Origin: a plasmid
Assembly: GCF_056712565.1 (NCBI RefSeq)
Contig: NZ_JBWXXM010000002.1
Direction: 5' to 3' (one strand)
DNA: 64,000 nucleotides
Below, one piece after another: positions 33,366 to 63,474 of the stretch (position 1 is the first letter of the stretch; each line of letters starts with the position of its first letter). Made by a program: the position numbers and the translations under genes. The notes below the pieces were generated by a model. That model was given only the letters and a program-made list of their open reading frames with translations. It was not told where the DNA came from and made no database searches.

Positions 33366-34607
33366 GTGAATCTACAATCCGGACAAAACATACCGCTTCA
33401 GCAATCTGCGATCAGGCTGAATCTTCAGTACCCTGCCAAATCCGGCTTTAAAGGCGAACCCGATACCTGCCTCTTCCTGCTTAATGCTCAGGGAAAGGTA
33501 ACCGGCGATTCTGACTTTATCTTTTATAATAATCTGTCTTCTCCTGAAGGGGCAGTAAAGCTCGTTACCGGTTCTCAGCAGTCCAGCATTGAGATAGCAC
33601 TGGATCGTGTTCCGGCGAACGTCAGTAAGATTGCGATCACCGTTGTCATTGATGGTGAAGATACTATCAGTGGGCTCAGTTTATTGAGCATTCAGGCTCC
33701 TGGTATCGCTGATTTTCAGGCTGAGACTCAGGGCCGCAGTGAGAAAGCAATCATCCTGGGTGAAGTATATCGGCACAATGGCGCCTGGAAGCTTCGTGCG
33801 CTCGGGCAGGGTTTCAACGGTGGTCTTGAGCCTCTGGCCATTAGCTTTGGCGTTGATGTCGCACAGCCAGCTCCGCAGCCAGCAAAGCCTGCTCGTATCA
33901 GTCTGGAAAAGAAACTTGAAACCAGATCTCCGCGCCTCGTAAGCCTCGCTAAAAAAGCCTCGGTCAGTCTCACTAAAAATAAACTGGACACCCTTGAGGC
34001 AGCGGTTGCATTTGTACTTGACGCATCCGGCTCAATGAGTGGCCAGTTCAGTAAGGGCAACGTTCAGTCTGTGCTGGACCGCATCGCCGTTCTTGCCGCC
34101 CAGTTCGACGACGACGGTGAAATGGATGTCTGGGGATTTGGAGAGAAGCACAAGAAGTATCCAAACGTCACACTGGACAACCTGGACACATATATTCAGT
34201 CCATTCGCGGGTCTGGAAAGCGTTCAGCCTGGGAGAACCTGCCGGGACTTGGTGGGACAAACAATGAGCCCCCTGTGATGGAAGAAATTGTCGACTACTT
34301 TAAGGACTCGAAAATCCCGGTATATGTTGTATTTATTACCGATGGCGGGATCAGCAAGACCCGGGCGATTAAAGATGCAATCCGGCGTTCTGCCAACTAC
34401 CCCATCTTCTGGAAGTTTGTCGGCCTGGGTGGTTCAAGCTACGGTATCCTCAAAAATCTGGATGACTTTACTGACCGCCGGGTTGATAACACCCACTTCT
34501 TTGCCATGGATGATTTCGGTTCGATCAGCGATGAAAAGTTATATGATAATTTACTGGAAGAATTCAGACCGTGGATCGATGAAACAAAAAGGTTAGGCAT
34601 CCTGTAA
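33366..34607 (+). CDS. terF: tellurium resistance protein TerF (TerD domain plus vWA-like C-terminus)
   Basis: GTG start with AGGAGAG RBS; 413 aa; C-terminal FVLDASGSM. Confidence 0.8.
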
Positions 34608-34635: not shown

Positions 34636-34663
34636 GCTCTACAGCAGCTTAATACTGTAGAGC
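34636..34663 (+). terminator. hairpin downstream of terF
   Basis: GCTCTACAG cagcttaata CTGTAGAGC; weak T-tract. Confidence 0.35.
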
Positions 34664-34935
34664 CTTTGTTCACTGGAAATCGTACAGGGAGGAGCATATG
34701 GACCGCATCAAGTACCTGAAATGGATAGCTGAAGAATCACCAACTGATGATGAAATCGACAACTACGATAGTATCATTAGTCGGGGCGCAGAAAGGGCCG
34801 AGAAGGTTCAGTTGTCTTTAAGACGTTAATATACGGGAGTTTAAATGTTCGTAAGCGTAAACTGACCGCCGTATGTAGCCATCAGACGAGAATTGGTAAC
34901 TTAGACGCCCATCTGATATAGACGGACATCTAAGT

Positions 34936-35361
34936 ATGGAATTACAGGACTGGCGAAAAGAACCTCGTAAAAACTATTCGAATGAATTCAAACTTCGTAT
35001 GGTGGAACTGGCATCACAACCTGGAGCTTGTGTTGCACAGATTGCACGTGAAAATGGCGTCAATGATAATGTTATTTTCAAATGGCTCAGGCTCTGGCAG
35101 AACGAAGGGCGTGTTTCGCGGCGTCTTCCGGTAACGACCTCTTCTGACACTGGCGTTGAATTATTACCTGTAGAAATAACGCCGGATGAGCAGAAAGAAC
35201 CTGTGGCGGCCATTGCGCCGTCTTTATCCACTTCCACTCAGACCAGAGTCAGTGCCAGTTCCTGCAAGGTGGAATTCCGTCACGGTAACATGACGCTGGA
35301 AAATCCATCGCCAGAGCTGCTCACGGTGTTGATCCGTGAACTGACCGGGAGGGGAAGATGA
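34936..35361 (+). CDS. IS66-family accessory protein TnpA (orfA)
   Basis: 141 aa, HTH-like, first ORF of IS66 triad. Confidence 0.8.
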   Translation: MELQDWRKEPRKNYSNEFKLRMVELASQPGACVAQIARENGVNDNVIFKWLRLWQNEGRVSRRLPVTTSSDTGVELLPVEITPDEQKEPVAAIAPSLSTSTQTRVSASSCKVEFRHGNMTLENPSPELLTVLIRELTGRGR

Positions 35362-35708
35362 TCTCACTCCCATCAGGTACCCGTATCTGGCTCGTTGCCG
35401 GCGTTACCGATATGCGTAAATCCTTCAACGGACTGGGAGAACAGGTACAACATGTGCTGAATGATAATCCCTTCTCCGGTCACCTGTTTATCTTCCGTGG
35501 CCGACGGGGTGACACCGTCAAAATTCTTTGGGCTGATGCTGATGGTCTGTGCCTGTTCACCAAACGCCTGGAGGAAGGCCAGTTTATCTGGCCTGCGGTA
35601 CGTGACGGCAAGGTATCCATTACCCGTTCGCAACTGGCAATGCTCCTCGATAAGCTGGACTGGCGTCAGCCAAAAACATCCAGCCGTAACTCACTGACAA
35701 TGTTGTAA
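35358..35708 (+). CDS. IS66-family accessory protein TnpB (orfB)
   Basis: 116 aa, ATGA overlap with orfA. Confidence 0.8.
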   Translation: MISLPSGTRIWLVAGVTDMRKSFNGLGEQVQHVLNDNPFSGHLFIFRGRRGDTVKILWADADGLCLFTKRLEEGQFIWPAVRDGKVSITRSQLAMLLDKLDWRQPKTSSRNSLTML

Positions 35709-35738
35709 AAAACTCCTGACCGCATTATAAAAACGGTC

Positions 35739-37352
35739 ATGAGTCAGAAATACCTCATTCGCATCGCAGAGCTGGAAAGGTTGCTCTCTGAGCAGGCTGA
35801 AGCCCTCCGTCAGAAAGACCAGCAACTGAGTCTGGTTGAAGAGACGGAAGCCTTCCTGCGCTCTGCACTGACACGTGCCGAAGAAAAGATCGAAGAAGAT
35901 GAACGGGAAATAGAACATCTGCGGGCTCAGATAGAAAAACTGCGCCGGATGCTGTTCGGTACCCGTTCTGAAAAACTGCGTCGTGAAGTTGAACTGGCTG
36001 AGGCTCTGCTGAAACAACGTGAACAGGACAGCGATCGTTACAGTGGGCGGGAAGACGATCCTCAGGTTCCCCGCCAGTTGCGACAGTCGCGCCATCGTCG
36101 TCCGTTACCGGCACACCTTCCCCGTGAAATACACCGCCTGGAGCCAGAAGAAAGCTGTTGCCCGGAGTGTGGCGGTGAGCTGGATTATCTGGGGGAAGTC
36201 AGCGCTGAACAGCTGGAACTGGTGAGCAGTGCCCTGAAAGTGATCCGCACAGAACGGGTAAAAAAAGCCTGTACAAAATGTGACTGTATTGTTGAAGCAC
36301 CGGCGCCGTCCCGCCCGATAGAGCGTGGTATCGCGGGCCCCGGATTACTTGCCCGCGTGTTAACGGGAAAATACTGCGAACATCTGCCACTGTATCGTCA
36401 GAGTGAAATCTTTGCCCGCCAGGGTGTCGAACTGAGCCGGGCCTTACTCTCCAACTGGGTTGACGCGTGCTGCCAGTTAATGACACCGGTGAATGATGCC
36501 CTGTACCGTTATGTAATGAACACCCGCAAGGTTCACACTGATGACACACCGGTAAAGGTACTGGCACCGGGTCAGAAAAAGGCGAAAACAGGGCGTATCT
36601 GGACGTATGTCCGGGATGATCGCAATGTGGGTTCGTCATCTCCTCCAGCGGTCTGGTTCGCGTACTCGCCGAACCGGCAGGGGAAACACCCGGAGCAACA
36701 CCTCCGCCCCTTCCGGGGTATCCTGCAGGCGGATGCGTTCACAGGTTACGACAGGTTGTTCAGTGCAGAACGTGAAGGTGGTGCACTGACAGAAGTTGCG
36801 TGCTGGGCCCATGCCCGGCGAAAAATCCACGATGTATACATCAGCAGCAAAAGTGCGACGGCAGAAGAAGCCCTGAAGCGAATCAGTGAACTGTACGCCA
36901 TCGAGGATGAAATACGGGGATTACCGGAGTCAGAGCGTCTTGCCGTCAGGCAGCAGCGAAGCAAAGTGTTACTGACGTCGCTGCATGAATGGATGGTGGA
37001 GAAGAATGGTACGCTGTCGAAAAAATCCAGACTGGGCGAAGCGTTCAGCTATGTACTGAATCAGTGGGATGCCCTCTGTTATTACAGTGATGACGGTCTG
37101 GCGGAGGCGGATAATAATGCTGCGGAAAGAGCGCTTCGTGCAGTCTGTCTCGGAAAGAAAAACTTTATGTTCTTTGGCAGCGATCACGGCGGCGAGCGTG
37201 GAGCACTGTTGTACGGGCTGATCGGCACCTGCCGTCTGAACGGTATCGATCCGGAAGCGTATCTGCGCCATATCCTGAGCGTACTGCCGGAATGGCCTTC
37301 CAACCGAGTTGATGAACTCCTGCCATGGAACGTAGTACTCACCAATAAATAA
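35739..37352 (+). CDS. IS66-family transposase (orfC)
   Basis: 537 aa, CPECGGEL zinc-finger region. Confidence 0.85.
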   Translation: MSQKYLIRIAELERLLSEQAEALRQKDQQLSLVEETEAFLRSALTRAEEKIEEDEREIEHLRAQIEKLRRMLFGTRSEKLRREVELAEALLKQREQDSDRYSGREDDPQVPRQLRQSRHRRPLPAHLPREIHRLEPEESCCPECGGELDYLGEVSAEQLELVSSALKVIRTERVKKACTKCDCIVEAPAPSRPIERGIAGPGLLARVLTGKYCEHLPLYRQSEIFARQGVELSRALLSNWVDACCQLMTPVNDALYRYVMNTRKVHTDDTPVKVLAPGQKKAKTGRIWTYVRDDRNVGSSSPPAVWFAYSPNRQGKHPEQHLRPFRGILQADAFTGYDRLFSAEREGGALTEVACWAHARRKIHDVYISSKSATAEEALKRISELYAIEDEIRGLPESERLAVRQQRSKVLLTSLHEWMVEKNGTLSKKSRLGEAFSYVLNQWDALCYYSDDGLAEADNNAAERALRAVCLGKKNFMFFGSDHGGERGALLYGLIGTCRLNGIDPEAYLRHILSVLPEWPSNRVDELLPWNVVLTNK

Positions 37353-37709
37353 GCGTCAATACGGTGCTCCGTTGACGCTTACAAATGTTCGCAGAAATCA
37401 AAGATAATTATTCGTTAGGTGGATAAAGAAAGGTTGCCATTACCAGCTTTCGACGAGTCGAAAATAAAAACCTTATTTATAGTGACAGGGAGTATGAGCT
37501 GACGCTTGCCAATGGAACAATAATTAAAAATGTACTTAGAAAAGAAGAGTGGGAACTGTTAGAAAGCAATTCAATTAAGGTTATATTATAACGAAAATAT
37601 ATTTACAGTTTTGGATAGGTTTCAAACGAGTCCGGACATTTGTACCTGAAGTATCTGACATTACAGTTAAGTGACGATTATGCCAGCACGTCTGTTGCTG
37701 GCAGCTTAG

Positions 37710-37991
37710 CTATCGGTCTAAAAGCTGATCCATTAATAATTCTTCGTAAAGCCCAGAGGTATCGGGCTTTATTACAATATCCGTTATTTCGAAGCGTTCA
37801 AGTACAAATTGCAGATATTCCGGAGTAACGTAGTAGGGATCAGGTTCAGCCAGATTAGTATAGAGTGGGTCTTCTGCTGCATTAATGTCATAATCAATGC
37901 ACATATGAAACCACTGCAAAGGTGGATCCCAGCCTAACATCACCTGAACAATTCCCTGATTGCTTTTCACCTCATACCAGTGCTGGCTCAT
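37710..37991 (-). CDS. hypothetical protein (93 aa)
   Basis: ORF track only. Confidence 0.35.
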   Translation of the reverse strand: MSQHWYEVKSNQGIVQVMLGWDPPLQWFHMCIDYDINAAEDPLYTNLAEPDPYYVTPEYLQFVLERFEITDIVIKPDTSGLYEELLMDQLLDR

Positions 37992-38040
37992 ACTTAGTCC
38001 TTAAGAAAATTTGTCATCGGAAAATAACACGAAGCCTGCA

Positions 38041-38232
38041 TCATCGAGGCGCATAACCTTCTTCCCTTAACGCCTGTTGTAATTTATCAACTGCGCTTTT
38101 CATTACCCAGGCTTCTTCGTCACTCACAGCACAACCACGTAGATCGCTCCAGCTCAGACGTTTAACAAATTGAGCAAGGGCCATAGTTTCGTTCTCATCA
38201 AGCCGCAAACTCAGTGTCTCAATACCTTCCAC
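38041..38232 (-). CDS. hypothetical small protein (63 aa)
   Basis: ORF track only. Confidence 0.3.
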   Translation of the reverse strand: MEGIETLSLRLDENETMALAQFVKRLSWSDLRGCAVSDEEAWVMKSAVDKLQQALREEGYAPR

Positions 38233-38323
38233 AATCTAACCTCCCTTATAATGAAAAATGGCGCTTTACTTCTGACCAGATGCCGAAGCCTTGAATGCAG
38301 CCGGAACTGTCGTTGTTTCTACT

Positions 38324-38695
38324 TTACAGAAATGGAATTAAAAAGTGGTGATGCTGGGCACGTTTCTTTTCCAGCCGGGGTTTAAGCCAGAGCTGAAACT
38401 CATTCAACTTCTCAGCAGCCAAAACCGCTTCAACGGGGAAAACTTTATATTTACCCTGTTGCTGAGGTTCACCCAGCCATCGCCTGATGGCTCCGTCAGT
38501 CCATAAACGAGTCTCTTTTAGCCTAGTTACAGTGACCCATTTTCTGGACCATTCATCAAATTGTCGCTGGCGATCCCGATAACGTTGTTCTTCCTGCTGC
38601 CGAAGCCACTCGCGATCAACAGCAAATTTTCGGTATCCAACAAAGAGCCCTTGTACTTTGGCCATGTCATATTCCGGTTGCTTAGAGTTACTCAT
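38324..38695 (-). CDS. hypothetical protein (123 aa), basic, coiled-coil-like
   Basis: ORF track only. Confidence 0.35.
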   Translation of the reverse strand: MSNSKQPEYDMAKVQGLFVGYRKFAVDREWLRQQEEQRYRDRQRQFDEWSRKWVTVTRLKETRLWTDGAIRRWLGEPQQQGKYKVFPVEAVLAAEKLNEFQLWLKPRLEKKRAQHHHFLIPFL

Positions 38696-62955: not shown

Positions 62956-63474
62956 ATGATGTTTTTTTTAACAAAGTTACTTTTGCCCATCATGATTGTT
63001 GTATTCCCAGTGGCGTCCTGGGGGAACTCAACAACTTTTGAGGCAAAGGTGGTTAAGATTGTTGACGGTGACACCATAACTGCGTTGGATGCTCAAAACA
63101 CAACCATCAAAATACGGATGTATGGTATAGACGCTCCTGAATCTAAACAGGCTTTTGGCCAAAAAGCAAAACAGGCCTTAACCACAGCTATAGCAACTAA
63201 AATCGTTACCGTGATAGACCATGGTACGGATATCTATGGCCGTATGTTAGGTACCATCTGGTTAGATGGATATGATATCAATGCCTCTATGGTGGACAGT
63301 GGATATGCGTGGGTTTATCGGTTCGAAGATAACGCCATTGTCCCTGGCTATATCAAATATGAATCCGCAGCACAAAAGGAGGCAAAAGGGTTATGGGCAG
63401 ACACCAACCCTGTCCCACCATGGCAGTGGAGACAGGCAAACGAAAAGCCCAGAAAGGTGAAAGAGAAGAAATAA
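62956..63474 (+). CDS. secreted thermonuclease (SNase-like)
   Basis: signal peptide MMFFLTKLLLPIMIVVFPVASW; VDGDTI, RMYGIDAPE, YAWVY. Confidence 0.7.
   Translation: MMFFLTKLLLPIMIVVFPVASWGNSTTFEAKVVKIVDGDTITALDAQNTTIKIRMYGIDAPESKQAFGQKAKQALTTAIATKIVTVIDHGTDIYGRMLGTIWLDGYDINASMVDSGYAWVYRFEDNAIVPGYIKYESAAQKEAKGLWADTNPVPPWQWRQANEKPRKVKEKK
62973..62983 (-). repeat. AAAGTAACTTT motif copy 9 (inside thermonuclease signal-peptide region)
   Basis: plus strand reads AAAGTTACTTT. Confidence 0.6.

Follow-up and report, generated by a model that had tools for sequence, protein, structure and literature searches.

IS66 from the Agrobacterium Ti plasmid and IS679/ISEc8 are the prototypes of the three-ORF IS66 family. 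This family is reportedly described by Han et al. in 2001 and by Gourbeyre et al. in 2010, with IS679 reportedly treated in the former. According to the family description, these elements share the gene order tnpA-tnpB-tnpC, a DDE transposase with IS66-specific zinc-finger and leucine-zipper regions, GTAAGCG terminal repeats, and an 8-bp duplication of the target. The 8-bp target-site duplication of IS66 is reported as a hallmark in a passage of PMC6778807 that cites Machida et al. 1984, and the same paper tells simple insertion apart from inter-copy recombination by whether the flanking octamers are identical or exchanged. ISEc23, as the element is named in ISfinder and NCBI PGAP, also appears under this name in publications, such as PMC4398462 for plasmid pEC958. 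Here, we analyze a copy on an IncHI2-type plasmid within a 64,000-nucleotide stretch of DNA, henceforth termed the window. The features named for the prototypes are all present in this element, yet IS66 and IS679/ISEc8 are different element species that are related to it at the protein-family level only. With ISEc23, in contrast, it shares the length of 2532 bp, the ends, the three proteins, and the 8-bp duplications, and it differs from most of the sampled copies by one synonymous base and has an insertion site not seen in the collections searched. The object is thus already known, an ordinary ISEc23 insertion, and the sequence comparisons detailed below make it all but certain that an intact, autonomous three-gene element of the IS66 family transposed in a simple event into an intergenic spacer of an IncHI2-type backbone.

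Read directly from the sequence, the element spans window positions 34851–37382 (2532 bp, + strand, left inverted repeat on the left) and matches annotated ISEc23 copies over its full length at 100.0%. Its left tip, GTAAGCGTAAAC..., begins at 34851 and its right tip, ...GTTGACGCTTAC, ends at 37382, with an octamer abutting each: both the left copy of the target-site duplication (34843–34850) and the right copy (37383–37390) read AAATGTTC. A perfect 8-bp duplication had been claimed by an earlier sequence-only reading, and the repeats were identical on re-inspection. That reading had also placed the element at 34851–37383; its start is retained, whereas its end has to be moved to 37382, as the right-hand duplication already starts at 37383. 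The terminal inverted repeats, GTAAGCGT... and ...ACGCTTAC, are imperfect and match at 20 of 24 positions, with GTAAGCGTAAACTGACCGCCGTAT at the left end (IRL, 34851–34874, + strand) and GTAAGCGTCAACGGAGCACCGTAT as the reverse complement of the right end (IRR, 37359–37382, - strand). Both tips begin with 5'-GTAAGCG, as is typical of the IS66 family. The octamer itself is not rare, with five occurrences in the window where 3.6 are expected; the probability of finding it by chance exactly against both inverted-repeat tips, in one fixed register, is about 4^-8, or 1.5e-5. A G follows the octamer on both sides, so that the two pieces of an empty site overlap by nine bases, i.e., the octamer plus one chance base. 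We assigned the left-hand G to the element because the inverted repeats are symmetrical. The resulting left junction reads, over 33 nt, GGGAGTTTAAATGTTCGTAAGCGTAAACTGACC.

Three intact reading frames, all on the + strand, fill the element. The first, tnpA (34936–35361), encodes a 141-amino-acid helix-turn-helix accessory protein that matches HTH_Tnp_1 (PF01527, E 5e-12) and scores 83 bits against the NCBIfam model IS66_ISRel24_TnpA (NF047595, cut-off 74); the tnpA coding sequence of the sampled copies described below carries the annotation WP_000422741.1, with 0–1 synonymous differences. Its stop codon overlaps the start of tnpB in an ATGA at 35358–35361. The tnpB product (35358–35708, 116 amino acids) is an accessory protein of the IS66 Orf2 type (PF05717, E 1e-36; 121 bits against NF033819, cut-off 50). 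The third gene, tnpC (35739–37352), encodes the 537-amino-acid DDE transposase, in which the match to DDE_Tnp_IS66 (PF03050, E 9e-98) covers 283 of 284 profile positions and is accompanied by the zf-IS66, LZ_Tnp_IS66, and DDE_Tnp_IS66_C domains (PF13005, PF13007, PF13817); TnpC scores 452 bits against NF033517 (cut-off 180). These domain matches support the earlier assignment to the IS66 family, for which we find all four characters: a DDE-type TnpC, upstream tnpA and tnpB genes that overlap, GTAAGCG inverted repeats, and an 8-bp duplication. By analogy with the family, TnpC assisted by the accessory proteins TnpA and TnpB would bind the GTAAGCG... terminal repeats and link the 3' ends of the element to the target strands, which are cut at a stagger of 8 bp; filling of the two resulting 8-nt gaps by host repair would generate the direct repeat AAATGTTC. 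Both the ability of this copy to transpose and the functions given here for TnpA and TnpB are likewise proposed by analogy with other IS66-family elements. A hairpin in front of the tnpA start (34899–34935) was considered as a translational control element and rejected, its folding energy of -12.2 kcal/mol not being significant (z = -1.44, equaled by 13 of 200 shuffled sequences).

The identification as ISEc23, a name taken from NCBI annotation and literature usage, has strong indirect support from sequence identity. A megablast search with the element alone returned full-length copies at 100.0% in plasmids of E. coli, E. albertii, and Salmonella as well as in E. coli chromosomes, their transposase being annotated as “IS66-like element ISEc23 family transposase”; some match to the element was present in 3,432 plasmid records and in 4,796 of 5,426 complete E. 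coli genomes. We sampled 18 annotated copies from other records. All have a length of 2532 bp and the ends seen in the window, and they differ from the window element by 0–6 nt (99.8–100% nucleotide identity). At window position 35627 the element carries a T where 17 of the 18 carry a C. This difference is synonymous (tnpB codon 90, CGT instead of CGC), so that all three proteins are those of standard ISEc23. Perfect 8-bp duplications surround 17 of the 18 copies; the exception is a case of matching flanks with another octamer pattern and not of an absent duplication. When copies were chosen regardless of their flanks, all 12 showed perfect 8-bp duplications of varied sequence. The only identical copy among the 18 is chromosomal and lies between pcoC and pcoB in E. 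coli 20AR1039, and a 160-kb plasmid of the same strain also contains a match at equal top bit score. The T at 35627 shared with this strain could hint at a donor lineage.

The element lies in the neighborhood of the ter genes. The ORF on its left (33366–34607, + strand) encodes a 413-amino-acid protein with TerD and vWA-TerF-like domains and follows terZABCDE in related plasmids, which confirms its earlier designation as terF; it is intact and ends 243 bp before the element. Next comes an ORF of 43 codons (34698–34829, + strand), which the sequence-only reading had listed as possibly affected by the insertion. The ORF exists, and RefSeq plasmids annotate its product as the hypothetical protein WP_000374059.1, for which we obtained no Pfam or NCBIfam match. 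The suggested effect is not borne out at the coding level: the frame is intact, 13 bp separate its stop codon from the duplication, and its 3' context alone is changed. In annotated relatives, the order is terZ-A-B-C-D-E, terF, the 43-codon ORF, an unannotated spacer of ca. 340 bp, and a block of three small genes in the opposite orientation. The element thus occupies a spacer between convergent units, with terZABCDEF and the 43-codon ORF on the + strand and the three-gene block on the - strand; the nearest gene of this block (37710–37991) has its stop codon 327 bp from the element. The insertion leaves unchanged two terminator-like hairpins upstream of it, one after terF (34636–34663, visible in the sequence) and one inside the end of the 43-codon ORF (34795–34809). 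According to the RefSeq annotation of relatives, the element interrupts no annotated gene, and Rfam searches gave no family at E<=1 in the intact spacer and none in the occupied region.

Among the alternatives to a silent, simple insertion, the one that survives best is that the element has functional consequences for its neighbors, which we nevertheless regard as improbable. The transcript of the 43-codon ORF could have been parted from its native 3' end, a short ORF could have been broken, or antisense read-through from tnpC could reach into the genes at 37710–38695, toward which the genes of the element point. The short ORF is a frame of 13 codons (MFAEIKDNYSLGG) that is opened in the empty site by GGGAG-N5-ATG, the ATG lying within the octamer that was duplicated. 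Contiguous in the empty site (ca. 6604–6645 of record L001), this candidate frame is now divided between window positions 34846–34850 and 37391–37424; on the left it is cut to six codons, and the right-hand copy has lost the ribosome-binding site. It is the sole sequence feature broken by the insertion. Yet the frame is unannotated, and its support is limited to a Shine-Dalgarno-like sequence. The intact intergenic region offers neither an annotated gene nor an Rfam match that could have been interrupted, and the two hairpins at 34636–34663 and 34795–34809 remain in place. Furthermore, Citrobacter plasmids and an E. coli chromosome tolerate other, larger insertions or replacements in the same spacer, which suggests that it is dispensable. 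We consider it most likely that the insertion is phenotypically neutral as well as recent. A version of this alternative in which neutrality is actually lost, because the 13-codon ORF or an unrecognized 3' element of the 43-codon ORF transcript is disrupted or because tnpC read-through silences 37710–38695, seems less probable still, and we would give it little weight. If it were true, silenced convergent genes of the IncHI2 backbone would change the behavior of the plasmid.

A second alternative concerns the origin of the junctions. The two flanks might not be original neighbors if the element had arrived or been reshaped when a pair of ISEc23 copies underwent homologous recombination, or if it were one end of a composite transposon. 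Such events have precedent, as IS66-family copies mediate deletions of this kind (PMC6778807), and ISEc23 sits at other positions in some IncHI2 plasmids. We compared the locus with plasmids lacking the element, using an empty-site construct made of 608 bp from the left, one octamer included, and 600 bp from the right as the query against 72,556 plasmids. The 1208-bp construct matched in a single piece at 100.0% in all 30 of the records listed, i.e., in at least 30 IncHI2 plasmids, and 642 plasmid records span the empty site. The carriers that we inspected, among them pSTM6-275, belong to the IncHI2/IncHI2A type and come from Salmonella, E. coli, Enterobacter, and Klebsiella, and in the empty-site plasmids AAATGTTC is present once. 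With 10 kb of flank on each side (a query of 22,540 bp), a two-piece match at 100.0% was obtained with many IncHI2 plasmids, and the corresponding span in these records is exactly 20,000 bp, the query length minus the 2,532 bp of the element and the 8 bp of one duplication copy. On a larger scale, window positions 14988–52769 are collinear with pR18.2256_182k at 99.99% with the exception of the element, which corresponds to ca. 20 kb on its left and ca. 15 kb on its right.

An exact empty site with collinear flanks indicates a simple insertion in which nothing was lost, gained, or rearranged, as had been claimed in the sequence-only reading; the empty-site comparison thus upholds this part in full. 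It also effectively refutes recombination, since hundreds of plasmids without the element have the two flanks directly joined and collinear. In addition, the octamers on both flanks are identical, which by the distinction drawn in PMC6778807 marks a simple insertion, and the window contains a single ISEc23 copy. We consider the chance that the junctions arose by recombination to be negligible. An equally negligible chance attaches to an assembly artefact, in which a repeat-collapsing assembler would have misplaced an IS copy: misassembly is common at IS elements, but misplacement would not yield a perfect 8-bp duplication at both inverted-repeat tips of an octamer that is single-copy in the empty site.

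Simple insertion of ISEc23 also agrees with the distribution of the occupied site, which was not found in 72,556 plasmids (PLSDB) or in 5,426 RefSeq complete E. coli genomes. Only four plasmid records cover at least 80% of the element with its flanks, all from Citrobacter freundii and with ISKox1 at another position, and none of the 5,426 complete E. coli genomes reaches this coverage. Combined with an element divergence close to zero (0–1 nt from widespread copies), this absence from both large collections fits a recent event private to one lineage and supports the recency proposed earlier. The word “recent” is used in a relative sense, resting as it does on that divergence and on two collections that are large but incomplete.

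ISKox1, another member of the IS66 family, has the spacer downstream of terF in common with the window element and is ca. 79% identical to it at the nucleotide level over the tnpB-tnpC part. In the Citrobacter freundii plasmids, ISKox1 is part of an insert of 3848 bp by which the 43-codon ORF is split at the equivalent of window positions 34745/34746, whereas the ORF is unsplit in the window; the boundaries of this insert do not coincide with an IS end, and the octamer targeted by ISEc23 is unoccupied. In pRHBSTW-00110_2 (record L003, 2493–6340), the insert comprises ISKox1 and a relB/dinJ-type antitoxin gene. The chromosome of E. coli TUM9812 (record L002, 3259–5798) harbors an ISEc23-like copy that is 98% identical to the window element, with 50 differences. 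It is located ca. 170 bp further upstream, equivalent to window position ca. 34680, has a different right-hand neighbor, and is flanked by unlike octamers, ATTAAAAG and CGGCATAC. The spacer downstream of terF has thus been struck independently by IS66-family elements in other replicons. ISEc23 is also found elsewhere in IncHI2 backbones in which the site downstream of terF is empty, as in NZ_CP034390.1 (60239–92526) and NZ_CP117034.1 (170018–172549), and these different positions imply several independent entries into this plasmid family.

A preference of ISEc23 for AAATG-like targets was suggested by the duplications AAATGGCT, AAATGAAG, AAATGATC, AAATGTGC, and GGATGTTC, which were taken from hits running 5–30 bp past the element. 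We rejected it as selection bias because these copies had been picked from searches that included the flanks. Among the 12 copies from the element-only search (11 distinct sites), the duplications varied, including TATCATTC, CTGAATGG, GGAAGAGG, CCTCTTTC, CACCGGGT, and AACAAAAA, and no clear target consensus was apparent in this flank-independent set.

Copies of ISEc23, a catalogued element, occur in thousands of enterobacterial replicons, and the one described here lies in a spacer that accommodates other insertions as well; its importance is accordingly very small. Its practical value lies in the terF::ISEc23 junction (…GGGAGTTTAAATGTTC|GTAAGCGTAAAC…), which is usable as a lineage marker for tracing this IncHI2 plasmid because neither the 72,556 plasmids nor the 5,426 E. 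coli genomes contain it. In addition, the plasmid gains from the element a 2.5-kb patch of homology and a source of transposase, presumably active by family analogy, that could seed later rearrangements.

Other mobile elements are present in the window. Compared with IncHI2 relatives, a second insertion is an IS5-family element of 1196 bp at 13792–14987, with the ends GGAAGGTGCGAA... and ...TTCGCACCTTCC and a 4-bp TTAG duplication at 13788–13791 and 14988–14991. It encodes a 326-amino-acid transposase (13860–14840, DDE_Tnp_1/DUF772) and interrupts, in the terY/PP2C cluster, a gene annotated in pR18.2256_182k as “lipopolysaccharide kinase InaA family protein”. An IS1 copy at ca. 52770–53537 contains an ORF of 167 amino acids (53019–53522, DDE_Tnp_IS1), and collinearity with pR18.2256_182k stops there. 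Further to the right, an IS21-family pair is encoded on the - strand (istA, 58451–59623; istB, 57654–58454), and beyond it lie genes for a DUF1173 protein, a C-5 cytosine methylase (61317–62786), and an SNase-like nuclease (62920–63474).
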